DNA of 64,000 bases, taken from assembly GCA_000165345.1 (NCBI GenBank), contig CM000433.1, positions 640,001 through 704,000 of the forward strand, written 5' to 3'. Of the stretch, positions 6,910 to 58,481 are shown in pieces; the first letter of the stretch is position 1, and every line of letters begins with the position of its first letter. The notes under the pieces were generated by a model. It made no database searches. It saw only the letters and a list, made by a program, of their open reading frames with translations, and was not told the DNA's origin. The translations under genes were made by a program, and so were the position numbers.

Positions 6910-7980
6910 ATGGCATGCCCAAGATTGTTAAGCGATAATGATTTATGTAGATTTAGAACAAAACCTTGTAGAAGATCAAAGCAAATGGGATGTGATTTTG
7001 GAATTACTAGATGCCAATACTCACATAACATTTACTGGCCAAGAAGATGCCCTTTCTATCTCTCAAACCAAAGTACTATTAGGTATATCCCAGTTTTGTG
7101 TCCTGATATCATAATTAAAGAGGATGAGAGTTCAATTTCACATTGCAATAGAGGAGGAGGATGTCCTTTTGCTCATTCTTATGAAGAAATTAATTATCAT
7201 CCTTTAATGTACAAAACAAAGATATGCGAACAATTTCAACGTGGAGATTGTAATACTTATTATTGTCATTTAATTCATGGATTAGCTGAAAGGCGAGAAT
7301 CTAAAGTTTATTTGCTACCATATACGCAAAATGTTCAAGTTCCTAATTTTCCTGGTGTTGTAATAGCTAATAGAGTTAACAAACCGTTTGTTGCAAATAG
7401 CCAACTGAATTATCAGACACAAAAGTCTTTAGTTAATAATGAGAATATTTGTAATAATCATGAAAATGGTTTTATCATTAGGAGAAATAATTTTGAAAAT
7501 ATGATTTCTGATAAATGGAGTGAAAGAATTTTTTCTCAAAATAATAATGGTGATGATTTTTGGAAATCTACTGAAAATGACGAGCTAACTACAATGGATT
7601 CTATTTCTAAATCAGAATCTGAAAATAATAACTGTGAAAATATGAAATCATCAAAATTGGTTACTAAAACACCTGCACCACATGCTTTAAATAGAATAGA
7701 AAATGATAAATCTGTCCAAGAAAAAATGAGAAATGAAAATATTCTCAATGTCTTTAGAGCATTTGTACTAGAAGATAATGATATCTTATCAGTTTCTAAT
7801 GATAATTGTAGAGTCCAAGCAATTAATTCTACACTTTCTAATAACAAAATCCAACAATTAAAAGTTAGAAACGAAAACCTTCAGACTCAAGAACATAGTA
7901 AAAGTTTTAATCACATAATTGAGGACTCTGAGATTATTAAGAATAATGAAAATTCAAATACAAGCAATTTTTTCGATTAA
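6910..7980 (+). CDS. CCCH (C3H1) zinc-finger protein, likely RNA-binding.
   Basis: 356-aa ORF. Several C-x7-8-C-x5-C-x3-H-like units at the N-terminus (CRFRTKPCRRSKQMGCDFGITRCQYSH; CNRGGGCPFAHS; KICEQFQRGDCNTYYCHLIHG). The C-terminal half is low-complexity N/S-rich. Confidence 0.7.
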   Translation: MACPRLLSDNDLCRFRTKPCRRSKQMGCDFGITRCQYSHNIYWPRRCPFYLSNQSTIRYIPVLCPDIIIKEDESSISHCNRGGGCPFAHSYEEINYHPLMYKTKICEQFQRGDCNTYYCHLIHGLAERRESKVYLLPYTQNVQVPNFPGVVIANRVNKPFVANSQLNYQTQKSLVNNENICNNHENGFIIRRNNFENMISDKWSERIFSQNNNGDDFWKSTENDELTTMDSISKSESENNNCENMKSSKLVTKTPAPHALNRIENDKSVQEKMRNENILNVFRAFVLEDNDILSVSNDNCRVQAINSTLSNNKIQQLKVRNENLQTQEHSKSFNHIIEDSEIIKNNENSNTSNFFD

Positions 7981-8169
7981 TTAATAATTAGATTTAATTT
8001 ATCCTAGCCTTTTCAAAAACATGTATTATTAATTACTCTATTTCTAAAACCGTTAAAAAAAAAGTGAGGGGCGGGGGGAGCATGCATTTGAATCCCTGCT
8101 TTTGCAAATTTAATGAAAATAATTCAAATCTTTTTTCCCCTACTCCCTCTACTCCCTCGCTATCCAACT

Positions 8170-10101
8170 CTATTCCAAATGAAACTTCAGCTTCTGTGTG
8201 TTACCAACAAATATATAATGCGACGGAAATTCTCCGTGCTCATTTAATCCTGGACACCAAACTTCTATTGTTGGAAATGCCATATTTGCATGTGGACGAT
8301 TTGGTTGCATGTCTTCCATACCGACATTATTATCCTCATGCACCGCTCTAATATGTACAATTCCTGCCATTGAGGAGATTGGCGCGCATGTTGAATTTTT
8401 TGCATGGCATATTCCCGCAATAGTATTCACAAGATTTTTTAAAGGTTTATTATATGGAAGAATTTGAGCTTGATTATCAATCATAGATACATCTTGGTCA
8501 GCAGGTAGAGCTGATGCAGGTAAAGATGCAATCTGTAGTTCAACTAGATGGCACCAAGTACTTGAAACAAGTGTACTAGTATTAATTAGTGACTTGCCAT
8601 CATCTCCCATAGGTATTACTTTGAGATTAATTGTATGAGGTTTGAGCGGGAATTCGGGGGTTCCAAAAAAATAAGATTTTAAACATTCTCTTCTAATTTC
8701 AGCAAGCCTTTGCGAGGTGATACTGATAACTCCGTCAGACTTTGAGACTCCAACAACAGAAATCTTTGGTAGTTTTTCAAACTGCTTTTCAATATTTAGT
8801 TTATTAATATCAATTTCCTGATCAGAGCTTGAGTTATTTGCATTTCCTGACTCTTCTAAATGTTGTTTTTCTAAGATTTCATAGCTTTGGGGTTCCTTAT
8901 AGTCATATTGATCTGATAAATAGTGTTGGGTACTTGGATCGTCCATTACTACCACGACATCAATGTTGAAAATAGAAATAAGTTCTTTTAAAAGGTCATT
9001 TGATGGCTGAAATGGAGCGTTTAATATAAATCCTGAAGCTTGAGAGTTTGTATCTTGAATGTTTTGACTCCTAAGCGATATTGCACCACTTAGAAGCCTA
9101 CACAGGTATAAATATAATTGAAGGTCATCTGTTACATTTAAATGACCAAAAAAGAATGAAAGAGGATTTCTTAACTCTTTGCTGTGAAGAAAAAATTCAT
9201 TAACTTTTATTGCTCCAATTGTTCCAGCTGGAAACTGCATATTTTCTTTATCCGTAGATCCTCTCGGATCTAAATCTATAAATAAAGGTGTATACCCTCT
9301 TCTTGCTGCATAATTACAAAGAATCTGACACAAGGTAGATTTACCTGAATTAGATGATCCTGTTACCATAACTCTTGGGCCTAAAGTCCCATGAAGCTTT
9401 GAAAAATTTCTCCTGTTATCCAATACTTGAATAACTTCCATATACTCTTTCATACTTTTATTCACACTTTCATATTCTTGCTGAACTAATCCTCTAATTT
9501 GTAAAATACATCCATGCCAAGTATATATCGCAACTCTTGATAATGGAGCAATCTTCATATCAACATCTGGAGGAAGCTCAGCTCCAAATATTTCTGCTGT
9601 TGTCATTGCATTTGTCTGAGCTCCTCCACTTCCTGTCACAGCTCCTGCCCCTGATGATGATGAAGAGTAAAGTCTAATTGTGCAAGGCTGACTTGGATGA
9701 GCAATTATTCTCAATTCACTTCCTGCTTCAATCTTATAAGCTCTTACTTGAGACTTTGTCATTCCAACCCCTGGGCCCACATCTCCTCCAATTCCACCTC
9801 CTTGCCCTGACCCCAGTCCTCCCGTTCCTGCTCCTGTTCCTACTCCTATTCCAACTCCTGCTCCTATCCCTGTTCCAACTCCTTGTCCTAACCCTAGTCC
9901 AACTCCTAGTCCAGGAATAGCTCCAGAACTTGCTCCTACCCCAGAATTAAATCCTATTCCTGATGGTATTTCCATTTTACATTCTAAAGCGCTTAAAGAA
10001 ATAAATAATTCAAAATTTTCCTTGTAAATTGTTACTCTGACCGTAGAGCTGTAAATTTTGTGTAAATTCAAATTAAATGAGTAATATTTCCTTCCATTCA
10101 C
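8170..10101 (-). CDS. CLP1: Clp1 polynucleotide kinase (mRNA cleavage/polyadenylation factor Clp1 family). An unusual Gly-rich N-terminal extension precedes it. The true start may be the internal Met at 9762.
   Basis: P-loop GPRVMVTGSSNSGKSTLCQILCNYAARRGYTPLFIDLDPRG matches the Clp1 Walker A context. N-domain ELRI..., AEIFGAEL and VAIYTWHGCILQIRG match Clp1 ELRFEV / AEIFGTEL / VAVFTWHGCSVQLSG. The upstream in-frame region 9763-10101 encodes GxGxG repeats. Confidence 0.75.
   Translation of the reverse strand: MNGRKYYSFNLNLHKIYSSTVRVTIYKENFELFISLSALECKMEIPSGIGFNSGVGASSGAIPGLGVGLGLGQGVGTGIGAGVGIGVGTGAGTGGLGSGQGGGIGGDVGPGVGMTKSQVRAYKIEAGSELRIIAHPSQPCTIRLYSSSSSGAGAVTGSGGAQTNAMTTAEIFGAELPPDVDMKIAPLSRVAIYTWHGCILQIRGLVQQEYESVNKSMKEYMEVIQVLDNRRNFSKLHGTLGPRVMVTGSSNSGKSTLCQILCNYAARRGYTPLFIDLDPRGSTDKENMQFPAGTIGAIKVNEFFLHSKELRNPLSFFFGHLNVTDDLQLYLYLCRLLSGAISLRSQNIQDTNSQASGFILNAPFQPSNDLLKELISIFNIDVVVVMDDPSTQHYLSDQYDYKEPQSYEILEKQHLEESGNANNSSSDQEIDINKLNIEKQFEKLPKISVVGVSKSDGVISITSQRLAEIRRECLKSYFFGTPEFPLKPHTINLKVIPMGDDGKSLINTSTLVSSTWCHLVELQIASLPASALPADQDVSMIDNQAQILPYNKPLKNLVNTIAGICHAKNSTCAPISSMAGIVHIRAVHEDNNVGMEDMQPNRPHANMAFPTIEVWCPGLNEHGEFPSHYIFVGNTQKLKFHLE
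9763..9960. repeat. GC-rich imperfect 9-nt repeat (cc[at]actcct / cctgctcct) encoding Gly-x-Gly repeats in frame upstream of the Clp1 catalytic body.
   Basis: tcctgctcctgttcctactcctattccaactcctgctcctatccctgttccaactccttgtcctaaccctagtccaactcctagtcca. Local GC content is far above the window average. Confidence 0.8.
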
Positions 10102-10715
10102 TAAACAATCATTATAATTTCAAATCCTTTATAATTCTATACTTAAGGCTTCCCCCTTCATCTCTCAAATTGCATATAAATATAAAAGCTTGTTGGCGCC
10201 AAAGCTTTACCTCTACAAAATAATAATACCCAGTATAAAAAGAAAGTAAAATAAAATTAAGTCAAAAATGGATTATTTTGGAATTTAATTTAATGATTTT
10301 TTTTAATAATTGTAAAAAAAAATTAATGTACTAGTGTTCTAATAAGGGAATATAAAGTCATTAAAATAGAAAGTGACAATAATATTTCTATTGATCCAAT
10401 TTCTATTAAAAAATTGGATTTTTCTATAAAACATATTTTGAAATTCTTAATTTAATCAAAGAAATAAAAAGGAATAATTTGCTTGTAATGATAAAATATA
10501 TATATATTTTAAGTGCCAGAATGCTTTAAAGTTTGTAATTGTAATAATATTTCCGAAGATTCAAATTGAAGAACTATTTCTTTTGATATTTCACTTTACA
10601 ATATACTCTACTTTAAACAAATAATAGAGAAATTGTAATGAAAATAATGTATTTCGATTAAAAACATATATATATATATATATATTGTATTTTTTCTCCA
10701 TCTTTTAATTACACT

Positions 10716-11756
10716 ATGAAAATTAATAATTGTGTTAATATATTACTTGGAAATGTGGGACTATGTAGCAATCTTAATGCTCACCATTTCAGGAAAATGG
10801 CTTTAAAATGTGATATAATATGTATATATCACAATTTTGAAGAATCTGATTTAAATTCTATTTTAGCCATTGGGAGAAATCCAACAAACCGTGTAAGTTA
10901 TAAAGATTTTTACAAAACTAGTTCAATATTGTTTGCACCATTTTTTAATAAGATAAAAAGGCTTTTCAAAAAGAATGTAAATAATATGTTTATGTGGTAC
11001 TCATATTTTCGTGGTAATATTTATTTGGAAAATACCTCGAGAATAATATTTGAGGTTCCTGATGGTTACAAACTTCAAAAACAAAGTATAGATTTTTGGG
11101 AATTTGATGTGGGAGGATGCTTCCTGAATTTTAGACGATTAATTCTTGCAAATGTTAATTTTACATATTTCTGTTCTATCAAAAAACAAATTTCTTGTAT
11201 CAAGTCTTTAAGATACTCCATTAAAGAAATTGTTTGGAAGAATTTTATAAGTGAGTTAATCTTCAACCCTCAAATCAAATTAAATAAAATAGAAGATGAA
11301 ACAGTCATTATAAACCTTAATGAAATAACTTCATTTATAATTTGCGGTAAATTCTCAAATTCCAATTTATCAAAAGATTTCCTGACTCTTTTTGGGCATG
11401 GAGAGCTTATTCCAATTGGTAGTAATTCCTTTCAATCAAATAACTGTAATTTTGACAATTATATTCTTAAAAGTATAGTATTTTCACGAGAAGATATTCT
11501 TTATTTTATTTCAGTATTCCCAGTTAATAAAGTTATTGGGCCTGATTTTAACAATTACTTGATTCCAAATCAATTCATCAGCATGTTTGAATTGCACCAT
11601 TCAAACTCCAATTTATTGTCTAATATCAATAAAATTCACTCCGGGAAAAGTTCTAGCCCAAAGTTTACAAAGTTCATTTTTTATGACAGTGTAAATATAA
11701 CCAAAACTTCTGTCGATCCTGAAAATAATACTCACTTGCAAGTTATATCCTTTTAG
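10716..11756 (+). CDS. Hypothetical protein, possibly leucine-rich-repeat-like. No confident family assignment.
   Basis: 346-aa uninterrupted ORF in an AT-rich genome where stops are frequent. Promoter-type GGCGCC motif upstream at ~10194. No recognisable catalytic motifs. Confidence 0.45.
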   Translation: MKINNCVNILLGNVGLCSNLNAHHFRKMALKCDIICIYHNFEESDLNSILAIGRNPTNRVSYKDFYKTSSILFAPFFNKIKRLFKKNVNNMFMWYSYFRGNIYLENTSRIIFEVPDGYKLQKQSIDFWEFDVGGCFLNFRRLILANVNFTYFCSIKKQISCIKSLRYSIKEIVWKNFISELIFNPQIKLNKIEDETVIINLNEITSFIICGKFSNSNLSKDFLTLFGHGELIPIGSNSFQSNNCNFDNYILKSIVFSREDILYFISVFPVNKVIGPDFNNYLIPNQFISMFELHHSNSNLLSNINKIHSGKSSSPKFTKFIFYDSVNITKTSVDPENNTHLQVISF

Positions 11757-15614: not shown

Positions 15615-15809
15615 TATTATTTAATTATATTTCTAAATATGTGTAAATATTTATTTTTATTTCTGTACATATATATACATATTCATCAGAAATGAATATA
15701 AATATTTTTAAAAAAATAATAATAAATAAGTATTAATAATTATTATACTTTAGCTAACAATAATTAATTCATTTCACACGAATTTTTTTATTAATATATT
15801 TTTGTCCAC

Positions 15810-24393: not shown

Positions 24394-24418
24394 ATTAAGA
24401 AATATTTCTATTAATCAT

Positions 24419-26095: not shown

Positions 26096-26469
26096 TACTA
26101 TAAATCTTTCAAAACCATTTCTTTTCCAAAATTTAATCACTATTACTGACTTTAATGCTGTCAAATTCCAATTCCCGCCATAACTTTAAGTAATTAATGA
26201 CAGTATTTTCAAAAAAATTTTTTTTAGTAATAATCTGCTCGGAATTATAAAGTTCTAAAAATAAACCAACTCAAATTCATATATTAATTTTTTTAATTGC
26301 TTCATTATAGTGAGAATTCTTTTAATTTGTTATTATTTCTTTCATATATTAAAAAAACAAAATTCTACTAAATTCATTCCATTCTATTATAACAATATTT
26401 AATATTAGATAAAATAAATATTAACTATTTAAAATATTATTTGAATCATTTTTTTTTAAACTATTGCAA

Positions 26470-26600
26470 TTTCATGTGGACGCATGTAATGCATGTCAGT
26501 ATAAAAACAATTATTGCAAAGTTTCTATACCGGTAAAATAAAGTTACGAAATGATTAATACCCTCAAAAGCCCGGTAAAAAAATGACAATTTCCACGTAT
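26470..26600. promoter_or_regulatory. Divergent promoter region (DNAJC21 on minus / BRR2 on plus) with the same composite as at 15810-15915: CATGTGGACGCATG, GCATG, CTATACCGGTA, plus CCCGGTA and TTCCACGTA.
   Basis: tttcatgtggacgcatgtaatgcatgtcagt ... gtttctataccggtaaaataaag ... aaaagcccggtaaaaaaatgacaatttccacgtat. Confidence 0.55.
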
Positions 26601-26855
26601 AGTATAATATAAAAATATTTATTTTTTTAATTATTTTTAAAAATAATTTTAAAAAATTGTTTCTTAAAGCTTGGAAGTTATTTTAATAGTTAGAATTAAT
26701 GCTAAGAAATACTTGAACCAGACCCATCAAACTATTAAAAGTTTAGGTGTTTTTTTTTTTAAAGGTTTACTTTATTTTCATTATTGATTTAATCGGAGAC
26801 GTATATAACGTAAGCTTTAATTTATTGATTGCTATATAAATATTATGTCAAAAAA

Positions 26856-29800
26856 ATGGCTGACGATTATGAAATGTCCAAGAGATTTGGATATAAAGCT
26901 AATAGTAATTTGGTAATTCAAACTAGTCAAAGAAGCAGAGAAAATGTACCAACAGGAGAAGCAGAGAGTTTGGCTGGGAGGATTAAGTATAAGATGGGAG
27001 ATTTGGCTAATAAACGAGCGAAACCTAAAATCAAAGAGAAGAAACATGTTAAAAAAAAATCAAACAGAAGCATTGTTAATGAAAATGACTCGGGTAATAT
27101 CTTAGATTTAGATCTTCGAAGTGCAGGAAACTCCTATACTCCAACTACAATGGAAACAAGACTTGCTTATGATGAGTTATTAGGGATTTTGACAGATATT
27201 CTAGGGTCTCAACCAAGCAAAATATTGGAAGATACAGCTTTTGAATTGCTTATAGTTCTTAAAAACGATGAATTGAGAGATGAGGAAAAATATAAGAAGT
27301 GCAAGGAGATAATTATTCAGCTAAATAATACAACATATAGTGATATATTAGATAAAAGCAGGAGAATTGTTGACTTTACTTTAAATATGGAAGAGATGGA
27401 TGATTCTCAAAATAAGCAAACTGAGGAAGCTTCTGAAGTTGCGGTAATTTTTGATGAAAGTGATTCTGAGAAAAGAAAAGGTGAACTTTCTGATGGAGAT
27501 GATGACAGTGAAAACGATAGTGATACTAGTGAAAGTGATGATGAAGAGGATAACGATTATGATGATGATAATGAATACTACGAAGAATATGAAAACGATG
27601 TCACTTTGGAAATTGGAAAGGACGAGGCTGAGAATTATCTCAATGATGAGAATTATAGTCGTGATAATGATTATAATGAGAATCATGAGCATTCAGGATA
27701 TATTCGATTAAAGAACAAGGATGAATACCTAAAGGAAAATGAAGATCCCGATATTATTGAGATTAGGAAATTGGATGCTTATTGGCTACAAAGAGAGCTA
27801 TATTCACTTTTTCAAGATGCAGATAAATCCTTGGATATGGAAAAGGAGATCATTTCTATTTTGAATTTAGAGGATGATCAAGAGTGTGAGAATTCTCTTG
27901 TTATGATGTTTAATTACGAGCATTTTAATTGGATTAAGAAAGTCTTAAAAAATAGATGGAGTATATATTTTTGTACAATACTTGGTCAGGCACCTTCAGA
28001 TTCTGAAAGGGAAAAGATTATAGATAGAATGAGAAATCATCAAAAAGGATCAGAAGTCTTAGATTTATTTAGTAAGCCTTCATTATGGAAAAACAAGGAT
28101 TCTGATTTTTTTAAATCAATTAATAAGTATATTGAGGAGACTACGGGTGTTATGACTGGTTTAGATGATGAAGATAAGAATCTAATAACTTCTAGAAAAC
28201 CTCATGGAAAACTTTTAGATCTTGAGAGAATATATCAAGAACAGAGTTTGAATTTAAATTTAAGCACAAAAGTAGTACTTCCTCAAGGATCTGAACGTAT
28301 AGAAAATGCTGATTATGATTCTATTACTATTCCTCCATCAAAAAGACAAATTAAGGAAAAGCAAAGATTAATTTCTATTGAAGAGCTTCCAGAGTGGAGT
28401 AGGGAATGCTTTAGATGTGTATCAGTATCATATTTGAATGAAATTCAAAGTAGAGTTTTTGAGACAGCTTTTAAAGATTTTGAAGAAAATTTGTTAGTTT
28501 GTGCTCCAACAGGATCAGGTAAGACTAACATTGCTATGCTTTGCATTTTGAATATAATTTCACAATTTATTGAGCCTCAAAATAATGGAAAATTTACATT
28601 GGACACTTCTAAATTCAAAATTGTATATGTATCACCAATGAAAGCTTTGGTATCGGAACAAGTTGAATCCTTAAGAATTCGACTAAGACCTCTTGGGATT
28701 CTAGTAAATGAGATGACAGGCGATACACGAATTAGTAGATCACTTATGGAAATGACCCAAGTATTCATTACTACACCAGAAAAATTTGATGTTGTCACTA
28801 GAAAATCTACTGATGGTCTTTCTGAAAAACTTAAGTTAATCATATTTGATGAAGTTCATATGTTACACGACTCCAGGGGATCAGTATTGGAAGGAATTGT
28901 TGCAAGATTTAAGAAAAGTTTTACAAGATTAGTGGGATTGTCAGCAACATTACCCAATTTTATAGATGTTGCAGAATTCCTAAATGTTAATCCAAAAAGA
29001 GGTCTTTATCATTTTGGTCCAGAATTCAGACCTGTTCCTCTTTTACAAACATTTATTGGTATTAAAGCAAAGAAGGGGTTCAAGAAGTTGCAATTAATGA
29101 ATAGCCTTGTATATGATACAGTAATTAAAGATATAACAAATCATCAAATTTTGGTTTTTGTCCATTCCAGAAAAGATACAATTCATACTGCAAAATACAT
29201 TAGAGATACTGCAACAGAAAATGGAATGCTTAATTTGTTCTTTTCTGGAAACAATAATGTTTCTAGAGAAATTATTTTGGATGAAGTTAATAATATCAAA
29301 TCGAATAATCTTAAAGAAATATTACCTTGTGGAATTGGTATTCATCATGCAGGATTAGTAAGATCTGATAGAAAAGTAGTTGAAGACTTATTTTCTGATG
29401 GACATATTAAAGTTCTTGTTACCACAGCAACTTTAGCTTGGGGTGTAAATTTACCAGCTCATACTGTAATTATTAAAGGGACTCAAATTTATCAACCAGA
29501 AAGGGGAGAATGGACAGAACTTTCACCTTTGGATATGTTACAAATGATTGGAAGAGGAGGTAGGCCTCAATACGATAATAACGGCCATGGAGTTGTTATA
29601 ACAGATTTTGATCATTTAACTTATTATCTTTCTTTGTTGAATCAACAGCTCAATATAGAATCTCAATTAATTCCAAAATTACCAGATCTTATTAATGCTG
29701 AGATATCTCTTGGTAATGTTCAAAATAAAAGAGATGCTCTTGATTGGATTAAAAAGACTTTCTTGTACATTCGAATAATTAGAAATCCAAGTTTGTATGG

Positions 29801-32800
29801 TCTTGATATTGATGAAATTATTGACAAATCCAGACAAGATAAGGATTTAGTTGCTGAAAATAAGGATGCTTTAGAAGAAGAAAGAGATCTAGCATTCAAG
29901 AATGCAGTTGAGTCTTATTTAATAAAATTGGTAGAAACAGCTCTTGATAGATTAGAGACTTGCAAGCTGATTCAATACAACCATAAAGATGGACATGTTG
30001 GATCATTAATGCTTGGAAGAATTTCCTCTCATTTCTATTTATCACCAGAAACAATTCAAGATCTTGATAAGCAATTACTTCCAAATTTATCTGAAATTCA
30101 ACTTTTTAGATTATTTTCAACTTGTAAAGAATTCAAATTTCTTCTTGTTAGAAATGAAGAAAAGATTGAATTGGAGAAGTTGGTGGATAAAGTTCCGATA
30201 CCTATACAAGGAGTGGGATCCAGCAATGTTGATGGTAATGATAATATTGGCAATATGGTTGATCTTGATACTTTTACTAAAGTTAATGTTTTACTTCAAC
30301 TTTATATAACAGGGTCAAGATGGATTAATGCAAAACTAACTCTTCTCTCTGATCTTCACTTTATTGCTCAATCTGCTCCAAGAATATTCAGAGCTATTTT
30401 TAACTTGGCTATTAAAAGAAGGTGGTCAACGTTGGCTAGAAGATCACTTAAGATTGCAACAGTAAGTTAAAATAGTGAATGAATTATTAACCTGATGTAA
30501 ATTATGTTAATAATATGATGATAAAACGTTTAAAATTCTTGTCACTACCATTGAAATATTCATATTATTATATGAATTTTGAAAATAAATAAACGTAAAA
30601 ATCTGATTAATCAAATTTATCATATTTTCTGAATGGTTTAATAATTTATCACAATAATTCTTTCCTTAATTAATCTATTTTTTAGATGATAGAAAGAAGA
30701 TCTTGGGAGGCTATGCTACCTTTAAGACAATTTAAAGGTATTTCCGAAGAAGTTGTTAAAAGATTAGAAAAGAAAGACATTAACTGGAATACTTACTACA
30801 GCTTTACCAGTAATCAATTGGGTGAAATGCTCAAATCTTCTAAATTAGGTAAGTTTTTTCAATTTTGCTAATTCCACATCTTTTGCATTATTTCCAATAT
30901 AATTTAATAATTAATATTGGAACAGTTTCCCGCCAAATTTTGCATGAAAATGAATTTTGTAAAGATGATGACAAAAAAAAAACAAAATGACAAGCATATG
31001 TCTGAAAGACATAAATTTAAAAATCATGGTGAAATTGATTGATTAGTTATTGAAGTGTTGCCAGTACTTCTTGATTAAAGATGGAAAGCTGCGTTTTCAA
31101 TAGCAATGAAGTAATTTAATCATGATTTTTATTTTTTTATATTGATGTTAAAGTTTTTTTATATTGGTCTGATTTATTCAAATTAACTCTTTGCATGCAG
31201 TTATAAATTTATTTAGGCGGGAAAGCTTTATGCAGTATGTGGGATAGTTAAAAGGTTAATAAGAAATTACTAATTATTTAAAATAGGTCCCGTTTTATAT
31301 AATTTGATAAGAAAAATACCAAGATTGGAGATATCTGGAAATATCTTCCCAATTGACTCGAAAATTTTACAGCTAGATTTGGTTATTAAATCTAATTTTA
31401 TATGGGATAATAAGATTCATGGTCAATCAATGACAGGAGATATTAATACAGATGAAATAAATACTGGCGAAACATTCTGGATTCTAATAGAAGATTCTGA
31501 TGGTGAATATTTATATCTCTCTGACATGATAGTAGTAAGACCATCATTGAATGAGATTTCCAATAATAAAAATGAAAATGAAATATTTATGCAAGATGAA
31601 TATTATTTAAGTTACCAGATATTCTTAGAAAAGAAAGGTGTAAGAAAAAATTATGACCAAGACGATGTAATTCCCCCATTTATATTTGTAAGGGCTATTG
31701 CTGATAAATGGTTGCATTCAGAAACGAGTATTTCTGTACCAGTTGAGAATAAAGTAATATTACCAAATATCCAATATGAAAATACTGAATTATTAGATTT
31801 ACAACCAATTAGAGTAAAAAAAGCATTTTCTGAATCTGGATTTGAGGTGTATTTGAGGAGGATGTTTAGTATTGGAGATAATGATAAAGAATTTGATCAT
31901 CAAAGCTATGATTCATTAAAATTAAATGGCCTTCAGACACAATTGTTTAATTTGATTTACAATTCAGATAAAAGCTTTTATTTATCATCACCTCCTGGAA
32001 ATGGTCAGTTTATTTGTACTTGTATGGGAATTTTGAGGGAGATGAAACAAGATTCAAAATTTCAGTCCAAAAATTTCCAAGTACTATTCTTATCATGTAA
32101 TAAGGATAAAGCTGATTATTATGTTTCTAAGTTCGAGTCAATTTTTGGTGTGAATCAAATAGTTTCTGGTTTGAAAGGAAAGACTCCAGTCCAAATTGAA
32201 CAAGAATTAAAATCCAAGAGTATAATAGTTTCAGATATTGAAACATGGGATAATCATGTTGGAAAAAAACTTACAAAGATACGTGATCTTGTTAAGAAAT
32301 TAAAACTTTTGGTTATTGATGGTATTGAGTTTATTAATAGCAATAATTCAAATGGCTCTGTAATAGAATCAGCTATTTCCAGAATTAGATATATTATTAC
32401 TCCTTTGAATTTGAAAATAAGAATATTTGCATATTCAAAGTGTATTTCTAATGCAAATGAGGTTTCTGAATGGCTGGGAATATCAAGGGAGAATGTATTT
32501 TCTTTTGATCAAAATATATTCAATGAAACTATTAATAAGAAAGTTATTGCCTTTGATTCTTATTATCGTTCAAGCCGTTTTCAAATGATGTTAAAGTATC
32601 TCAAAGATAATATCATTTTGCAGTTAATTAATCAACCTAAAGAAGAAAAGAAAACTTTAATAATATTTGTTTTGGATTATGAATTCTGTTTAAGCTTGGC
32701 TAATGAGCTATCTTTATTTATTGTCTCAGAAAGTGATCAACAAGAAGAAGGTGTTACTGAATATAATTCTTTATTAAAATTCTCAATACACAATGGAATA

Positions 32801-35086
32801 GGTTTTTTGTATAAAAATCAGTCATTTAAGGAAAAAGAGTATATTTTATCACAATTTAATGATGAAAAGATAAATATTATCATAGCTTGTGAAGATATGA
32901 AGAATTCTATTACTCTCAAATTTGATTATGTTGTTGTAATGGATACAAAGAAAATTGATTATGATGATAATAAGGGTTCGCTCATTAATTCAAAAATACG
33001 TAAAACTATTGATTATTCACAATTTGATATACATCAAATGCTAAGTAGATGCAGAAATCAAATGGATCATTATTCCAACTTTATTTTATTGTGTTCTTCA
33101 AATAAACAAGAGTTTTATGAATATACAATTAATAATTCTTTGCCTTTAGAATCAAATATTGATTTTGGTATCATTGATTGCTTAAATACAGAAATTGCTT
33201 TGAAGACTATTAAAACAAAACAAGATACTATAGATTGGATTACTTGGACATTATTTTATAGAAGAATTTCAAAGGTAAGTTGTTTATTTAACTATTAAAG
33301 CGTATATAAATATATATTTATATATGAAGATTCTATATGTGACTATTATTAAAAAAGATATATTATTAATGGGAAAATTAATAATTTGGATTTATTTCAT
33401 TTATTTGATGATGACAATTTGTTTTAATAAATGACAATTTTATATGATTGTAATATTTTTTATATACATATTCGTACTGTCTGAGAGTTATATTCAATTT
33501 ATTAAATTTAAAATAAATCCAATAAAAATTAATAATATACCAACTGTTGTCATATTTTGACACAAATTATTAATAGTTGCATGATCTTGGCGCCAATTTG
33601 GTAATATATATTTATATACATTTAATTAATATAAAAACTTTTTTAATTCACATTTCTTTTTTTATAGAATCCAACTTATTATGGACTAACAGGAAATACA
33701 AGCGTTCATATTTCAGATTACTTATCTGAATATTTGGAGAGCCTTTTGGATTCATTATCTGAAGCAAAATGTATACAAGTTGATGGTAAAGAAAATGATG
33801 AAGATGGTGATAATGAAAAAGAGGAAGAAAATGAAGATGATAATGAAGGAGATGATACGGTGGTATCGCTAAATTTGAGCTTAATTTCAGCATTTTATAA
33901 TTTGAAAGTTTCTACTATTGAATTTATTAGTAAGAATTTGAGCGAAGATGATACCTATGATAGTCTAATTCAGTTAATTTCGATGGTTCCTCAATTACAA
34001 GAAGAATGTCTGATAAGAAAGGGGGATAACCAGATTTTAGATCAATTATGTAGGGATCTGAACTTAAATTTAATGTCAAATACTGAAAGTTCTAAGTCAT
34101 CATCATCTTCAAATTACCAACATAGAAGCTTAACTTCAAGAAAGATCCAAATACTTTTGAATTCATATATAAAACGTCACAAATTTATATTGAGCAGACC
34201 ATTGGTTAAAAATGATTTGATAGATATATTGCGATTTGTAATGGATTTATTATTTGCAATGGTTGATATATCAAGTTCAAATGGCTGGATTAATACTTGT
34301 TTAAGAATAATGGAACTTTCACAAATGTTAGTTCAAGCAATAAGTAACCCAGTAAATGATAAATTAATGCAACTTTCAATGTTAATGAATAAAGATCGAA
34401 TTCGAATATTTAAGGAAAGTGGCGTTACTGATATTTATGATTTAATTAATATGAACGATGATGATAGAGATGAATTATTAACAGAAAAACTTTCTTTAAG
34501 TGAAAAGGAAATATCTCAAATTGCTCAAGTTTGTAATGATTTCCCAATTATAGAAACTGAATATACTATTCTTGGCTGTAATGATTTGAATGAAAAAAAT
34601 AAAAGAAGAAGATTAGATTCAGATAATTCCACTAATACAAAAAATGGAGAAACTCAAAGATTATTTGAATGTAATCCTGAATCTGAACTAACTTTATCTA
34701 TTGATATATCAAGAGATTTTAGTTCTAATGAAGAAGAAGATAATGATTTGAAAAATCAAAATGATATTAAAGATCAAGAAATTTATCCATGTATCGTTAA
34801 GAATTTGAATTATTATCCTCTTGAAAAGGAAGAGAATTGGTGGGTTATCTTAATAAAAATTGCTGTTCCAAATTCATCAAAGGAAAATAAGGATGATGAA
34901 AATGAAGATGAAATTTTGTCTATAAGAAGAATACAACTTAATAAAATAAGTAATCAAGTATTGTTAAAGTTTAACTCAATTGAAGATTCTGGTATGATTA
35001 CAAACTATAAGTTACTGGTTATTTGTGATAGCTACATTGGATGTGACCAAGAATTTATGTTTTCTATCAAGACAGTAGAATCTTAA
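26856..35086 (+). CDS. BRR2: Brr2 / SNRNP200 (U5 snRNP 200 kDa tandem Ski2-like helicase), 4 exons: 26856..30461, 30686..30848, 31287..33274, 33668..35086. Total 7176 nt, 2391 aa.
   Basis: Collinear with human SNRNP200 from [20 protein letters not shown] (human [20 protein letters not shown]) through cassette 1 ([52 protein letters not shown]) to the C-terminus YIGCDQEFMFSIK (human YMGCDQEYKFSV). Three GT..AG introns in phases 0, 1 and 0 were placed by requiring continuity with the human sequence (MLPLRQFKGISEEVVKRLEKK; IRKIPRLEISGN; NPTYYGLTGN). Confidence 0.9.
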
Positions 35087-35326
35087 TATATTTATAGCTT
35101 TCTTTATTATTATTTTTTTAATTATTATTTTACTAAAATTTAACTTCAAATATATATAAACATGTTAGTTTCAAATTTAAATTTTCAGCCTAAATAACTA
35201 TAAATAAATTCTCCATCTATACAAATATGAATATTTCGAATTACGTGTATTCAAATGCATATTTGCATGCATGCATATTTGGCTATTTTATGTGGATAAT
35301 TACACGTATGGCGGGAAATGCAAGAA

Positions 35327-37627
35327 TCATTTTCTACTTTTTTTGATAAATTTGAGAATATTTCCCATGCTTTGATCATCAGTGACATCATTTAAATCAT
35401 TAATATTATGGTTATTGGAGTTTCTTTTGTTCTTGTTTTTTTTTGAAATCTTGGTATTGTTTGAAACATTTTTATAAGATGATGATTCTTCTAGATTATC
35501 AAGAATATCAATTTTTTCGTCAATAATATTACTAAATAGTTTTCTTGTTTTATCAATTTTCTCATTAACATTATTCCAATCATCTTTTTTATTAAAGCTC
35601 TCAATCTTTAGACTTTTAAATATTTTAAAATTCTTGCTCATAAGTACATCCTTTCCACCTCCTTGTTCTTCATTAAGTAATTCTTCAACGATCATTTTTC
35701 TGAAAAGATTATCAGAAGCATAAAACATTGCAATAATAGCATAATTGCATATTCCTGATAGTACTAAATTTAAAAAGTTTCCAAAATAACTTTGAATCCA
35801 TCTTTTCTTAAGAGATTGAGGAATGTTACTAGTAGATGAAACTAATGTTTCAATCATCCTAATTCCAAAAGGAACTTCAAGAATATCTTTAAGCATTATA
35901 TTCTTGTGTTTGCTAATAAAATATGTAATACCAGAAGTTAAGGGATGAATTGTATCTGCTGGAAACTTTGATAAAGAGCTAATCATTAAACATCCTTGAG
36001 AAGTTATTTTCAACTTTTTCTCTGCAGATTCTGTCTCTGACTTAGAGCTATCATTTTCTTTCCCTTCTAATAATAACAATTCACTCTTCTTCTTTTGAAA
36101 TATTAAGCATGAAAATGTGTATTGATAATCTTCACTTGAATCTATTTCTATTGACTTCCATAATTTTTTAGTTAAATATTTGTATTCACTTTGTAATCTT
36201 CTACAATTATCTATTAGAGAAATTAATATATCTAAAAACTCTTTTTTACTTATCATCTTTGAGAAATCTAAACATTTCAATATTGGAATAAATTCCTCAC
36301 GTTTAATTCTATTACTCTTTAAAAGATTTAAAATTATATAATGTCCATATTCTGAATCTAATATATCATTTAAGAATAACTGATCATATTGTTCTTTAGA
36401 GATTGTATGTGAATTAATCCAAATAACTAAGAATTCATATGGAATCACTTCTAATAGTGCTTCTAATAATCTACTCTTTAAATTTGAATTCATCCAATTT
36501 CTAGTTGAATTTGAAAGTAATCTTGAAATCTTTTCAGAATCTACATCTCCATTTTCATATCCAATAATTATATCTTCATCAGTTTCTTGTCCATTTGTTA
36601 TAATAATTGTTAATATTGTATTAAATAATTTTACTAATTCAGCATTTTTTTGTGGATTTAATTCATTCAATGCTCTAATAAACAATATTAAAGATGGTAA
36701 TCCATAAGTATCTCCTATAATACCTTCAAAATCCTCTTTAAGAGATTTTAATAGTTGAGATGATAATGATGTATCATCCATATTTGAAGAAAATACTAAG
36801 TCTTTCAACTCTTTAATACTATTACATTCATATGTTTTATATTTGTTTTGACTCTTTCCACTATACTTTTGTTTATTAGCTTGATTCCTTTTTCCTACAT
36901 TTTCTAATATATAAGTCTCCATATTGTCAATACTCATAGTTACTTTCCCCATAGTAATATTAATAACAGTTCTTCCTACATGACTTGCTGTAGAATTAGT
37001 AAATATTGAAATCCAACCCAAAGTATCTCCCATTTTTCTTACAAATTCCAAAATCTCTTCTAGTATTAAACTTCTTTCTTCATGAAAAATCTTCTTCTGT
37101 TTTAGAAAACTTAACAGTATTGCAGAACTTTCTAATGCTGTCTCTGTTACATGAGATCCATACAAATCAAAAATACTTTGTTCTACATGTTTTAATATAC
37201 TTTTTTGAATAAATATATAATTGGATATACAATTCTTTAATCTTTGAAATGCTTCATTTTCCTCAATCATTTTACTTTTCTCATTCAATATATCAAAGTT
37301 TATTGAATCTATTAATCTCTTGATACTTAATATATTAATACTAAGCATTAATTCAAAAATCTTACTGCATCTTTGATCACTCATTAAAAAGACTTCAACA
37401 TCTTTCTTCCTCATATCCTCAATAATTCTATCAACTAGTACTTCACAGCCTTGTTCATCATTCAATAAATCACCTGTTAATATCATATCTTTGATTTTTT
37501 TATAGTAATTCAGAATTTCCATATAGTAATTCTCATCTTCTTGATTTACTTCAACATTATTAGTGGTTTCCTCTTTTTTATCTTTAGAAGTTTTTTCTTT
37601 ATTAGCTTTTTCTTTTCCCATTTTCAA
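35327..37627 (-). CDS. Hypothetical helical-repeat protein with a Lys-rich N-terminus. Possibly a nucleolar/ribosome-biogenesis factor. No confident family.
   Basis: 766-aa uninterrupted ORF. Lys/Glu-rich start MKMGKEKANKEKTSKDKKEE. Promoter motifs (GGCCCGCC, TACCGG) upstream at ~37870-37925. Confidence 0.5.
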   Translation of the reverse strand: MKMGKEKANKEKTSKDKKEETTNNVEVNQEDENYYMEILNYYKKIKDMILTGDLLNDEQGCEVLVDRIIEDMRKKDVEVFLMSDQRCSKIFELMLSINILSIKRLIDSINFDILNEKSKMIEENEAFQRLKNCISNYIFIQKSILKHVEQSIFDLYGSHVTETALESSAILLSFLKQKKIFHEERSLILEEILEFVRKMGDTLGWISIFTNSTASHVGRTVINITMGKVTMSIDNMETYILENVGKRNQANKQKYSGKSQNKYKTYECNSIKELKDLVFSSNMDDTSLSSQLLKSLKEDFEGIIGDTYGLPSLILFIRALNELNPQKNAELVKLFNTILTIIITNGQETDEDIIIGYENGDVDSEKISRLLSNSTRNWMNSNLKSRLLEALLEVIPYEFLVIWINSHTISKEQYDQLFLNDILDSEYGHYIILNLLKSNRIKREEFIPILKCLDFSKMISKKEFLDILISLIDNCRRLQSEYKYLTKKLWKSIEIDSSEDYQYTFSCLIFQKKKSELLLLEGKENDSSKSETESAEKKLKITSQGCLMISSLSKFPADTIHPLTSGITYFISKHKNIMLKDILEVPFGIRMIETLVSSTSNIPQSLKKRWIQSYFGNFLNLVLSGICNYAIIAMFYASDNLFRKMIVEELLNEEQGGGKDVLMSKNFKIFKSLKIESFNKKDDWNNVNEKIDKTRKLFSNIIDEKIDILDNLEESSSYKNVSNNTKISKKNKNKRNSNNHNINDLNDVTDDQSMGNILKFIKKSRK

Positions 37628-44252: not shown

Positions 44253-44666
44253 TAACCTCAGAACAATATTTATTCCATTTTCCTTTTTTTTGCTTTAGAA
44301 CATTTCAAATCTTCAGTTTTACATAAATAATATTATTAATTTATCATTCAATTATTCCGATTTTTTATTTGATTTTTAACCATTTCCTCACTTATTGCAT
44401 GCATGCAGTATTTAAATTAATGTGGTCAGGTCAGGCGCCAAATTTTTATATTAAGAAGAAAATTAAATTATATTTTGTATTAATAATTAATATAATTGTT
44501 TATGTTATAGGTTTGGGTTTAAGTTTAAAAGAAAGAAGCAAGTATAGTTTTTATTAAAGAATATCCAAGATAAATAATTAATATCAGTGTTTTTTTTAAG
44601 AAGATAGACGTATTATGCAAACACAACTTTTGATAATTAGGTTAATTTGAGTGATAATGCGCTGAA

Positions 44667-45005
44667 ATGAGTAATACTGTGAAAACTGTAACTACAATAA
44701 ATGAACAAGTAATTGAAGTAGTATCAAATTTGGAAACAAATAAAATTTCAGAAAAACTAGAGGATATATCCACTAAAGTTAATCAACTATTAACAGGTTA
44801 TATAAGTAAAGAAAATGATGAATCAAGTGTAAGTAGCCAAGATGAATATGAAGGTCAAACAAGTGAAGAAACAAGCCTTAATAAGTGTTTGAACGCCAAA
44901 TACAAAAGCGCAAACTATGAAAGCGAAAAAGAATCAAATCCAGTAGATAATTCAGAAACAACTAGTAGAGGCAAAAGGCATAAAAAAGATACTAGTGATA
45001 AATAA
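44667..45005 (+). CDS. Small Ser/Glu-rich hypothetical protein (112 aa).
   Basis: The ORF is preceded by its own promoter-type cluster (TTGCATGCATGCAG at 44396, GGCGCCAAAT at 44445). This argues it is a real transcription unit rather than a chance ORF. Confidence 0.4.
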   Translation: MSNTVKTVTTINEQVIEVVSNLETNKISEKLEDISTKVNQLLTGYISKENDESSVSSQDEYEGQTSEETSLNKCLNAKYKSANYESEKESNPVDNSETTSRGKRHKKDTSDK

Positions 45006-52783: not shown

Positions 52784-52924
52784 TCCTCCCCCAAAATTTT
52801 GTGTCTATCTTAGTTCTATTCCTTAATTCTTTGTTTCTAATTTCTTTTAACTCTTCTCCTTCTTTTCTATCCACACCTGATCTTATTCTAATTTTCTTAT
52901 TATATTTGTGCATTTTTCTTTTAT

Positions 52925-52965
52925 TTCAACTTGCTCAATTTTGGCGCCACAACTTCCCGCCTTTT
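52925..52965. promoter_or_regulatory. NAA10 upstream promoter elements (minus-strand gene; may be shared with the cullin-like gene): TTGGCGCCAC plus TTCCCGCC.
   Basis: caattttggcgccacaacttcccgccttttgaaagg, immediately 5' of the NAA10 start at 52783. Confidence 0.5.
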
Positions 52966-53578
52966 GAAAGGTTGAATTTCGACTAAAACAAAAATAAGAG
53001 GTTAATATTAGGTAGGAGGGCCAATTAGAAGAAAGAAAAGTGTGGTGAAACAAGAGGAAATATATTGAGCAGAAATATAAGTGATAGTCAGTTGTATTTT
53101 TTTGTGTGATAACATTATTACGGGTTTTATTGAGTCAGTAATAACAGTCTTATACTAGTATTAAAAAAAAAAAGAGTAAATAGGCATTTTGATAAATTAA
53201 GGACGGGTAACTTTGATGATAAAGCATTTTTAGCTTAAGGAGAGAGTATTTTGGTCAATTATAAGTTTATGGTTGGCTAATTTTTATGCAGTTTATGTAT
53301 AGAATTCAAAGTGAGTAGCTTTGAATATCAACAAGGGCGAAAGCCCTTTATATATCTATTACTATTGTATATCAATATAATTATTACATTAAATGTCTCT
53401 TAAAAGAATTCAGAGAGGTTTAATTAAAGAAGAATTCAAGAATTCAAGGTAATCTTTGAATGGAATTATTTATTATTTTTTTTTGTTTTAATATGCTGAA
53501 ATGCCTTTTTGATGTTAAATAGGAAAACGAGAGCAGATTAGTATTAGTGAATCTTGTATTATATTAAAAAAATTTAAG

Positions 53579-56500
53579 ATGTCCAAGAGTAAATATGAGG
53601 AGGAATGGGAGGAGAAGTTTGCAAAAAATATTGAAGGTAGCAAGATTAGTAGAGATATCAGTGATATTCTTTATGATATTGAGAAAAGTTGTTTAAAGCC
53701 TTTAATATACTTTTTAAAGTCAATCCCTTCTGGGTTTGCTCCACTTCCACTTCCCTCTCTGGAAGCTATATTGGAGCATAGTGAAAACGAATATGTTTCA
53801 TCTTCTTTTGGAGTTGAGAGAAGTATAGAAAGTGAAATTCGAAACTTAGGGACTAATTTCTGGTTCGATATGGTTATGAGTAATGGATCTGGGCCATTCA
53901 ATTCTAAGCAAATTAATTCTCCAAATGTATTTAATCATTGCTTAGTTAATAAGCTTAAACGTGTTTCTCGTAATGATGATTCAAAGGTAAATGATGAAGA
54001 AAAGGAACATGGTTGCGAAAATAGCACTTCTAATAATCATAATGATGATGATATAAATCATGGTAGTAATCAAGTTAATCAAGAAGATGAAAATTCACAA
54101 TATAAGAGTAAAAACTTTCAGATTGTGATTTCTCTTCAACAAATGTTGCATATTTATAGAATTGGAGGTATTAATAATGAAAATGTTTGGACAGCTTTAT
54201 TTGGAGCACAAATAATGGATCATCAAAGTAATAAAGTAGTTATTAAATATATTATGCCTTCATTTCTTTCAAATCAGATTCTAATGGATGCATATACAAA
54301 CATTATACAGATTTCAGAGCCTCAGAATAATTCAATGCAAATTTATATGTATTGTAGAAATATTTTAAAACATTTTTGTACTGATATTATTACTCCCAGA
54401 ATACTTATACATGCAAATATATTCTTATTATGGAATAGTACATTGAAAGATTTTTTCAATAATAAAACATATGATAAATTTCTCTCTGATATATTTAATA
54501 CAACTTCAGATAATTCACCAAAAGATTCAAATAACTCAAGTAATAATCATAGAAGCTCTTCTGATAGTGTCTTTTCTTTATATTCTGGCTTATTAGGTGG
54601 AACATTACCAAGCTTGCTTTTACTCAAAGTAATTGAGGAGGAATTTGCAAAGTTTAGTGTACTTACTCATTTTTTGATTCGAATCTTTGGTTATTTAGAC
54701 AGAAATAGCTGTCATGTATTTTCAAATTCACCAGATCTGAATATTACAGCTTTGTTGTACTTTTATAAGTGTGTATTCTTTCCATTATCATCATCATTTA
54801 CAGCAGCTTTATTAAATATAATTACAGTTGAGAGAGATTTCTTTGTACAAGCTTGTCTTAGAAGTTTATTTTCTCCAAAAATGAGTGACAAAAATGTATT
54901 TGATTGTATTAAAAGAATTGAGGATAGTGAGAAGGAGATAATAGAAATGGATGAAGTTGATGATGTTGAGGAGATTATATTAGGATCTTTTAGAGGATGT
55001 GAAAGAGGAACATCTTTGATTAAATGCAAAAAGGAGACCCATTTTTCTATTGATATGGATAATATTTATAGTAATTTAACAGTTGATAAGTTTCCTGGTG
55101 AAAGTTATAATAGGGTTTTATTTAATGTAATTAATAATATTATTTTAATAATGAGTAATAACTCAAGTAATAAGATTTTTCTAAAAAGGACAAATACTTC
55201 AGGGATTTATGATGACTATTTGGTTTCCAGATTTGGTAATACATCATCTTCATCTTCCTCTTCCTCTTCTTCAAATTCATCATGTTTTTTGGATAATAAA
55301 CTTAAAATGACTCGAGTTCCCAATTTTAAGATTGAGAAAAGAGTAACAGGGTTAAATAGAACATCAATAACAATAGATCCATATAGAGATTTAGAAGAAA
55401 ACCTTTTAGGTTTAAATAAAAGTTGTAAGATTTCTGGATTATTTTGGTTTCCACAGGAAGAAATCGATCAAACAGTATATAAGAATACGGTAGAAGAACC
55501 ATTTTTAAGAGGAACTTTGTATTACTATTATAATAGACTTGATGGTTTATTTGGATTTTTAGATTTGAAGCAAAGTTGTATGTTGGTCAACAGTATTTTA
55601 TTAAACGAAGAAAAAAGAGTTGTGAAAATCTTTCCAAAAAGATCTCATGCAGGATTTTTTAAACTTTTAGAGAGTGTATTGTTTTACTTTTTATCAAGAA
55701 AGCTGTTGGAGTCATATAAACAGAGTGTTTGTGGTATAATATTTCTAAATAAGAAAGAGATGAATGGTAACGATGTGGAATTATTAGATAGAAATGATAA
55801 GAATCTAAAATTTTGTTCTTTATTCAAGGGAAGTATTAGATCTTATATTAATAATGATAATTACTGTGCATTAAGATCAATTTACTTGTTGTTCTTAAAG
55901 GATACTTTAAGATCAAACTCTCATAATATTTTAAATAAGATATTATTAAAATCTGAGACTTGTAGTCGCCACAAGAAGTTAGAATTTCCAATAGGAAATC
56001 TTCAAATAGATATTTCAAAACTATCAAGTTCAATAGGAACAAGCACAAACAACCAAAATGGATCAAATAATAAATCAATTTCTACTGGCTCATCCAGACA
56101 GTCTTGCTTTGTATATTTAGCTTATGTAATATATGAATCAATAATAGAAGATGTCTGGAAAGTAATGAAAATTGAGAATGATGATTTATTAAAGAGCGAG
56201 AAGAATAACTCAATAAGAATGAGTGATAGATTTCTTAGTATTCAAATAATACTATCAATGTTGAAAAGATATAGAAGATTTGTCAAGATTTCTTTTGAAA
56301 ATGACAAAGTATTAAAAAAGATAATACATAGAGCATTCTATGATGGGCTTATATTACATCTCCAAAACTCAATTTCTCCAAACAATTACAATTTAGTTTT
56401 ATTCATGCTTTCCGCATGGATAGCTTCTTTTATTGACAATAGAATAATTCAAATTCACAGTATTTTTTCCCTTTTCAATGATGGAAAGCTTATAAATTGT

Positions 56501-57710: not shown

Positions 57711-58481
57711 NNNNTNCNANTCNGAANTNNNTNAANNNTTNTNANCNNANTAANNNTCNNTNNAAANTANNNATNCNANTANCNNNNNANNANATTNTAT
57801 CATNNNNNNNNTTNGNNNAATNNAGANNNNNTNNTCNTNNTNTNTNANNNTATTNTNNANANTTGNGANNNNNTNANANTNTNTNANNANAANNTTNNNN
57901 TANGNNNCANNNTNNTTNNNNATNAACNTNCNTTTTTANNNNTNANNTNTTCNTCTTTATGATTNTTAANNTCNNTTNNNATANNCNNNGNTTNNNNAAN
58001 AANTCANNTTTANNNTNNTNANNNNNTTNNNNTTCTNTCNNATTNTNAATANNTATATNAATTANAACGANNTNNNTNANGNANNACNNNTNTATTNAAN
58101 NNTNAATNTTNNNNNTNATTTNNAATAAGNATAAGANNNNANTTTNNATNTNTNTNAANANNTTNTGGNNNTCCNGATTNATTGTNNTANATNNAATNNA
58201 NNNNANTNANTACANNATTNTNATTNTTNTCCAAANNTNATNNNATTANGCNTATCCAATAAAGCAGATGAACAATTNTGATTNTNTTNGNAATTATNAA
58301 TNCAAANCTANCANNTTNATATATAGANNTAANTNNNGTNNANNATNTNACGAGTCTNATAANTTNGANANCTNNANTNNNTTCAATNNTACTTAANANT
58401 NANAAANATTCNNTNNANNNTCAANNTCTNCAATTATACNTTTANNAGTNNTNTNANTNNTNTCNTGTTTAATAATTNCTC

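Follow-up and report, generated by a model that had tools for sequence, protein, structure and literature searches.

The 240-bp gap between the convergent genes for BRR2 and a NOP9-like protein on chromosome 5 of Cryptosporidium parvum holds a compact module of putative transcription factor–binding sites, consisting of two overlapping ApiAP2_1 palindromes, the element TGTGGATAA, and one E2F/DP1 site. The module shares the motif grammar of the real promoters in the surrounding sequence, yet no mRNA starts there. We are moderately confident that it is recognized as DNA by transcription factors and likely acts as the promoter of an antisense non-coding RNA, and that a second gap, between the genes for a CCCH zinc-finger protein and CLP1, has a weak equivalent at best. 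The most likely function of the module would be that of a dedicated promoter of a non-coding transcript, probably running rightward on the plus strand and antisense to the NOP9-like gene over its 3′ part. Such a transcript would belong to the known 3′-anchored antisense long non-coding RNAs (lncRNAs) of C. parvum. The CCCH/CLP1 gap (gap 1) could represent a weak, lineage-restricted counterpart of the BRR2/NOP9-like gap (gap 2), in which a G-tract may be bound by a G-box–binding ApiAP2 protein. From the sequence we infer where a transcript would start in gap 2, which way it would run, and which factors would bind there.

The window is a 64,000-nucleotide stretch of C. parvum chromosome 5 with a G+C content of 27.6%. 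It corresponds to about 662–726 kb of CP044418.1, on which a coordinate equals the window position plus 661,812, and it carries the legacy chromosome 5 identifiers cgd5_2890 (at 10716), cgd5_2950 (at 24419), and 5g3020 (at 41736). On CP044418.1, gap 1 spans 669,793–669,981 and gap 2 spans 696,899–697,138; the CCCH gene and CLP1 directly precede cgd5_2890. The two gaps and their flanking genes are as follows, in window positions.

6910–7980, plus strand: gene for a CCCH (C3H1) zinc-finger protein, CPATCC_002310, 356 aa, called as an ORF; left flank of gap 1
7981–8169: gap 1, 189 bp, tail-to-tail between the CCCH gene and CLP1
8170–9975, minus strand: CLP1 gene, CPATCC_002311, with Pfam CLP1_N and CLP1_P and a 601-aa annotated product; right flank of gap 1
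26856–35086, plus strand: BRR2 (SNRNP200) gene, 4 exons, assigned by Pfam; left flank of gap 2
35087–35326: gap 2, 240 bp, tail-to-tail between BRR2 and the NOP9-like gene
35327–37621, minus strand: NOP9-like PUF-repeat protein gene, CPATCC_002324, 764 aa, with Pfam PUF_NOP9 at 5.7e-21 and an exact protein match

A protein identical to the 356-aa CCCH product is found on CP044418.1 of GCA_015245375.1, and its C3H1 zinc-finger name is that given by NCBI; a Pfam search of this product returned zero matches at E ≤ 0.001. Removal of three introns from BRR2 (30462–30685, 30849–31286, and 33275–33667) gives a spliced coding sequence of 2391 aa with its sole stop at the end, and BRR2 orthologues are 2376–2394 aa long. 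The NOP9-like gene ends in a TGA codon at 35327–35329 on the minus strand. The initial annotation had described both gaps as convergent, and gene calls, Pfam assignments, and synteny in other taxa confirm that both are truly tail-to-tail. This arrangement is kept for gap 1 in all 7 of the other Cryptosporidium taxa with orthologous loci compared, in which the gap measures 21–672 bp, and for gap 2 in 4 of 4 other taxa compared. The motif strings that had been reported are also in place, with GAGGGGCGGGGGGAGCATGCAT at 8066–8087, GGCGGGAAATGCA at 35310–35322, and TGCATGCATGCAT at 35264–35276, one nucleotide away from the position originally given. The second gap 2 motif had been described as falling just past the stop of the minus-strand gene, and GGCGGGAAATGCA indeed lies 4 nt from the NOP9-like TGA.

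Other parts of the window are packed even more tightly. The stops of an FHA-domain gene (plus strand) and the DnaJ gene cgd5_2950 (minus strand) are 25 bp apart (24394–24418), with a motif-free stretch between them, so the 3′UTRs of these genes must overlap extensively. In the CP044418.1 record, locus tags CPATCC_002312, one of 002316/002317, and two of 002321–002323 are absent from the consecutive protein accessions. Skipped tags fall in the intervals 8170–10716 and 26856–35327, and CPATCC_002312 would start between 8170 and 10716. Because the locus tags skip and the protein accessions are consecutive, non-protein genes appear to be annotated in these intervals.

Gap 2 contains the following elements.

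35203–35208, plus strand: AATAAA, the likely BRR2 poly(A) signal, conserved and upstream of the module
35264–35276: TGCATGCATGCAT, two overlapping palindromic ApiAP2_1 sites, with 10 of 12 positions conserved across three species
35291–35299, plus strand: TGTGGATAA element, with 9 of 9 positions conserved in three species
35310–35318, plus strand: GGCGGGAAA, predicted E2F/DP1 site, separated from the stop codon of the NOP9-like gene by 8 nt, with 9 of 9 positions identical in three species

The identity of these motifs is established by their agreement with published consensus sequences. The ApiAP2_1 consensus is present in full, flanking B and H positions included, as T-GCATGCA-T occurring twice in a complete palindrome, and GGCGGGAAA matches the E2F/DP1 consensus ([C/G]GCGGGAAA, or TTSSCGCCWAA). 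The reverse complement of TGTGGATAA is TTATCCACA, which resembles motif 5 (TTGTCCACATK) of the C. parvum lncRNA study of Li et al. (2021, PMC7840661), and TTATCCACAT of gap 2 is similar to the same motif. Related sites occur in true promoters of the window at 15803, 15871, 26474, and 52868. The first three of these, together with 8288–8297, are also the places of the 10-mer GCATGTGGAC or its reverse complement; this 10-mer corresponds to motif 5, occurs four times in the window against about 0.015 copies expected from base composition, and lies in divergent promoters at 15803, 15871, and 26474. The BRR2 signal AATAAA follows the consensus A(A/G)TAAA given for poly(A) signals in bioRxiv 10.1101/2025.01.17.633476, and candidate minus-strand signals of the NOP9-like gene are found at 35134, 35122, and 35108.

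Comparison with dinucleotide shuffles of the window, from which the chance expectations for the motifs of both gaps were taken, establishes that the combination is not random. Ten copies of GGCGGGAA are present in the window against 0.12 expected, all 10 of them outside coding exons, and TGCATGCA is present in 9 copies against 0.58 expected. Gap 2 therefore stands far above chance, and the joint expectation for its motifs is about 1e-6 per gap. A metagenome scan for TGCATGCATG-N15-45-GGCGGGAAA returned chance matches only, with zero Cryptosporidium-like sequences among them.

The module is selectively conserved. C. parvum, chipmunk genotype I, and C. ubiquitum have the order TGCATGCATGCA, TGTGGATAA, GGCGGGAAA in common, and in each of them TGCATGCATG(C/T)A is followed by TGTGGATAA, then by GGCGGGAAA, and then by the stop codon, with spacers that contain indels and vary in both length and sequence. 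Across these three species, 28 of 30 motif positions are identical versus 108 of 210 (51%) in the rest of the gap (Fisher p = 5.7e-6), a pattern indicative of purifying selection on the module. The C. canis gap, 117 bp long, is unalignable with the others; the same three motif types are present there as TATCCACATGCA, AGCCCGCCCAAA, and AGGCGGG. The motif-5 (M5) element, TGTGGATA, lies on the opposite strand in C. canis, within TATCCACATGCA, and E2F half-sites are found there on either strand, such that the motifs are tolerated in both orientations. An RNA element in a 3′UTR would hold its strand, and the inversion of M5 therefore argues for recognition at the DNA level; it points to a module read as double-stranded DNA rather than as RNA. 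The 194-bp gap 2 of C. ryanae holds no comparable module. As a positive control, E2F sites in the true promoters beside CLP1 and the CCCH gene are retained in all species out to C. ryanae; the gap 2 module, absent at that distance, is therefore younger or less constrained.

The closest precedent for gap 2 is found among the lncRNAs of C. parvum itself. A total of 396 have been described, of which 91.7% are antisense, with start sites that follow the 3′ end of the sense coding sequence, and the two leading motifs in the 100 bp preceding them are E2F/DP1 and ApiAP2_1 (PMC7840661). Like those upstream regions, gap 2 has E2F/DP1 and ApiAP2_1 sites within about 100 bp of a position at the 3′ end of a coding gene. 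The likeness extends to exact strings: the motif-1 instances in Table S3 of Li et al. include TTCCCGCCATA, the reverse complement of GGCGGGAAA, and the motif-2 instances include the gap 2 11-mer ATTTGCATGCA; the motif-5-like element is a further point in common. The geometry differs. Head-to-head placement with an mRNA gene, with a shared region between the two, accounts for 309 of 363 antisense lncRNAs (PMC7840661), so starts in tail-to-tail gaps would be a minority case. Unlike this majority, for which a shared bidirectional promoter is suggested, gap 2 is tail-to-tail and without an mRNA promoter. [quoted passage not shown] A transcript starting in a tail-to-tail gap would resemble such read-through and would thus be the kind of candidate that was removed. 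Probes of 16–22 nt taken at 15 positions within and near the two gaps had no match in the searchable portion of the lncRNA sequences of Li et al., and the positive control was found.

Gap 2 can also be set beside the canonical mRNA promoters of C. parvum, in which E2F, ApiAP2_1, and G-box motifs are used (Oberstaller et al. 2013, PMC3734150; review PMC12246861). The consensus sequences are shared, as are strong depletion from coding sequence, co-occurrence of motifs, and conservation between species. In contrast to canonical promoters, the gap modules lie downstream of both neighbors, and the promoter sites of the neighboring genes are conserved more deeply, to C. ryanae. Within the window, E2F and M5-like elements occur together at 26165–26828 and 52784–53578, both true promoters, and ApiAP2_1 occurs together with E2F ahead of the genes that begin at 23602 and 44667. 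The ApiAP2_1 site is distal and the E2F site proximal in all three unambiguous two-motif mRNA promoters of the window, and ApiAP2_1 is distal to E2F in three of the five cases of co-occurrence from Table S3 of Li et al. The same order in gap 2 points rightward, into the NOP9-like gene. A leftward transcript would reach the poly(A) signals of the NOP9-like gene within about 150 nt. Poly(A)-signal hexamers as such abound on the two strands, at 2.7 and 2.3 per kb, and are uninformative on direction. Together, order and geometry weakly favor a rightward direction for the putative transcript.

Motifs of this kind are rare between convergent genes of the window. Of its eight true tail-to-tail gaps, gap 2 alone has high-confidence E2F/ApiAP2_1 sites; the other seven, including gaps of 25 and 85 bp, are without strong motifs. 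Nearly all divergent or tandem intergenic regions of the window have at least one E2F/ApiAP2_1 site. Motif-bearing tail-to-tail gaps are thus exceptional, which fits with the estimate that about 10% of C. parvum genes have antisense RNAs (PMC7840661).

A third cluster that seemed to lie in a convergent gap, at 44396–44442 (TGCATGCATGCA at 44396 and GGCGCCAAA at 44434), was rejected as the ordinary promoter of the gene at 44667. The 112-aa acidic, serine-rich ORF at 44667–45005 on the plus strand is the annotated gene CPATCC_002328, and TGCATGCATGCA and GGCGCCAAA lie 230–270 bp upstream of it. With CPATCC_002328 included, the apparent convergent gap of 873 bp resolves into a tandem promoter and, beyond it, a tail-to-tail gap of 120 bp.

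Gap 1 presents a different picture. Its elements are the following.

8066–8080, plus strand: G-tract GAGGGGCGGGGGGAG, with overlapping G-box hexamers
8080–8087, plus strand: GCATGCAT, an incomplete ApiAP2_1-like site preceded by A
8131–8160, minus strand: tract that is C-rich on the plus strand and GA/G-rich on the CLP1 mRNA strand; pairing with the G-tract possible

A motif scan found no E2F site in gap 1. The G-box, G[T/G/A]GGGG, is bound by the ApiAP2 protein cgd8_810, and the G-tract contains it as GAGGGG at 8066 and GGGGGG at 8073. Because GCATGCAT has A at the B position, it departs from the ApiAP2_1 consensus BGCATGCAH, and it is not an 8-mer palindrome. Its occurrence next to the G-tract is probably fortuitous.

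That the motifs are neutral sequence that arose by chance and has no function is a serious candidate reading for gap 1 only; overall we consider it unlikely. For gap 2 it is excluded by the joint expectation and the selective conservation given above. At gap 1, non-palindromic GCATGCA 7-mers number two in the window, the gap 1 copy included, against 2.3 expected, and the hexamer G[AGT]GGGG is unenriched, with 14 occurrences against 11.6 expected. Nor are the motifs better conserved than the rest of the gap: among C. parvum, C. meleagridis, and chipmunk genotype I, three-way identity is 8 of 15 positions for the G-tract against a gap background of 63%, and 5 of 8 for GCATGCAT, whose GCATGC core is lost in the other two (ATATGCAT in C. 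meleagridis and ACATGCAC in chipmunk genotype I). The orthologous gaps of C. felis, C. ryanae (21 bp), and C. muris contain zero motifs. Against an origin by chance stands the 10-mer GGGGCGGGGG of the G-tract, which is the single copy in the window, with 0.28 expected when one mismatch is allowed. G-richness is also kept in the three species, and a G-box instance survives in each of the other two, as GGGGTGGGGTGGGGG in C. meleagridis and GAGGGG in chipmunk genotype I. Finally, the C. canis orthologue of gap 1 bears a strong E2F site, in the pair TGCATGTA and TTGGCGCCAT; these motifs hint at a recurring regulatory element, or at motif turnover at the same place.

The C. canis gap in question (L006 4663–4805) is unalignable with that of C. 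parvum, and CCTGCATGTATTTGGCGCCATTTT within it is an ApiAP2-like site adjoining the strong E2F site. In C. parvum, the copy of GCATGTGGAC at 8288–8297 falls in the CLP1 coding sequence, 120 bp from the stop and about 200 bp from the gap 1 G-tract.

The promoter interpretation of gap 1 is accordingly weak on this evidence, and the strength originally attributed to this gap was overstated, given that GCATGCAT is at chance frequency, off consensus, and unconserved in the two nearest species. The proposal that the motifs mark promoters of antisense or non-coding transcripts divides along the same line: gap 2 fits it, by the motif matrices of Li et al. and by the signature of selection, and gap 1 fits it much less well.

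The gap 2 module lies in the probable 3′UTR of the NOP9-like gene, just past the poly(A) signal of BRR2, so roles other than that of a promoter are positionally possible. In yeast, antisense promoters are found in 3′ nucleosome-depleted regions, and the factors Reb1 and Rap1 form roadblocks to transcription; in mammals, MAZ G5AG5 pause sites lie between closely spaced genes. The gaps considered here resemble these systems in having sites for sequence-specific factors between close convergent genes of a compact genome, although the factors are unrelated. By analogy, bound E2F/AP2 proteins (or, in gap 1, a G-rich pause site) might halt RNA polymerase II past the poly(A) site before it enters the opposing gene, serving in termination or as an insulator. 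The module begins about 55 nt past the conserved AATAAA of BRR2 and ends 8 nt before the NOP9-like stop, as such a roadblock might; the gap 1 G-tract GGGGCGGGGGG, which we take to resemble a MAZ-type pause element, lies between genes just 189 bp apart; and a roadblock, too, needs recognition of DNA that is independent of orientation. It is difficult to reconcile this role with the restriction of strong motifs to one of eight true tail-to-tail gaps, when even the 25- and 85-bp gaps do without them, or with the motif-free gaps of C. ryanae, where gap 1 measures 21 bp and gap 2 measures 194 bp, and no such role is reported for these motifs in the Cryptosporidium literature examined. We therefore regard a roadblock as quite unlikely. 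The more specific form of this idea, in which the gap 2 module is not a promoter and is instead a factor-bound boundary that ends convergent transcription and separates overlapping 3′ ends, strikes us as improbable as well. If it were true, E2F/AP2 sites would help to terminate or insulate transcription in a eukaryote whose genome is extremely compact.

Also improbable is a distal regulatory role, in which the module would be a downstream, enhancer-like site for BRR2 or the NOP9-like gene and would give rise to no transcript of its own. Introns 2 and 3 of BRR2 likewise bear E2F/ApiAP2_1 clusters, which makes the locus unusually rich in such sites away from its 5′ region, and the promoter of the NOP9-like gene has the variant site GGCGGGCC only. 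These intronic clusters, however, sit 60–95 nt before the next exon or 10–30 nt before a small nucleolar RNA (snoRNA), like promoters close to a start, and regulation by enhancers is undocumented for this very compact genome in the literature examined.

The least probable of the alternatives, to which we give little credence, is that the motifs act in the mRNA as 3′UTR elements for stability, localization, or polyadenylation: the position of the gap 2 module within the probable NOP9-like 3′UTR, given the three poly(A) candidates, and the potential pairing of G-tract and C-tract in gap 1 (fold z-scores of −2.66 and −2.06) would suit it, but M5 is inverted and E2F half-sites lie on both strands in C. 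canis, the strings coincide exactly with instances of known DNA-binding motifs, and in neither gap was a conserved RNA structure found, with consensus folds of −5 to −10 kcal/mol and no covariation. Folding each gap as a single sequence likewise yielded nothing credible. For the gap 1 tracts, the three-species consensus fold is weak, at −10.4 kcal/mol, and shows no covariation. Rfam searches at the gathering threshold gave no relevant match in the window or the gaps, and a tRNA scan gave none. At an E-value threshold, Rfam matches were none in gap 2 and at chance level only in gap 1 (E of 0.8–0.95, far under gathering).

An antisense promoter in gap 2, the reading that we prefer, would be of practical value. 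Most antisense transcripts of C. parvum start in regions shared with an mRNA promoter and are for that reason genetically inseparable from it. Antisense transcription could be tested more cleanly with a promoter-like module that lies tail-to-tail between genes. Because gap 2 has no mRNA promoter, the conservation of its module suggests selection on the non-coding transcription itself, or on a boundary function. At about 60 bp, the module could be mutated by CRISPR, and this could reveal the effect of an antisense RNA on a ribosome-biogenesis gene. Beyond its value as a test case, gap 2 is an instance of an already published phenomenon. The initial annotation had held that the motifs would extend their known role; for a promoter this is incorrect, as their role upstream of antisense lncRNAs is in print (PMC7840661), and gap 2 adds an instance to that role. 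The evidence partly supports gap 2 as a new and cleanly isolated member of the published class.

BRR2 itself contains further motif clusters of interest. Introns 2 and 3 carry ApiAP2_1 and E2F sites at 31190–31226 (TGCATGCA with GGCGGGAAA) and 33579–33600 (TTGCATGA with TTGGCGCCAA), 60–95 nt upstream of exons 3 and 4, and these clusters look like internal promoters. In the legacy annotation, BRR2 was divided into several genes, including cgd5_2960 and cgd5_2980. Intron 2 also holds a SNORD27/U27-like C/D-box snoRNA at about 30957–31019 on the plus strand, with C box AUGAUGA and D box CUGA. The guide, 23 nt long, agrees at every position with the consensus of Rfam RF00086, and the match scores 26.8 bits (E = 0.0078), which is under the gathering score. 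This snoRNA is probably the annotated, highly expressed intronic non-coding RNA cgd5_2965 (PMC9465071). Since TTTCCCGCCAAATTTTGCATG lies 10–30 nt upstream of it, the snoRNA may have its own promoter despite its intronic location.

A dense cluster within coding sequence was also observed at 56855–56902, where GGCGCCAA is followed by GCGCGGGAAATTGCATGCATGGGG in the 1605-aa ORF at 53579–58396 on the plus strand. This cluster lies about 1.5 kb from the 3′ end of that gene and is a candidate for a promoter, either internal or antisense.
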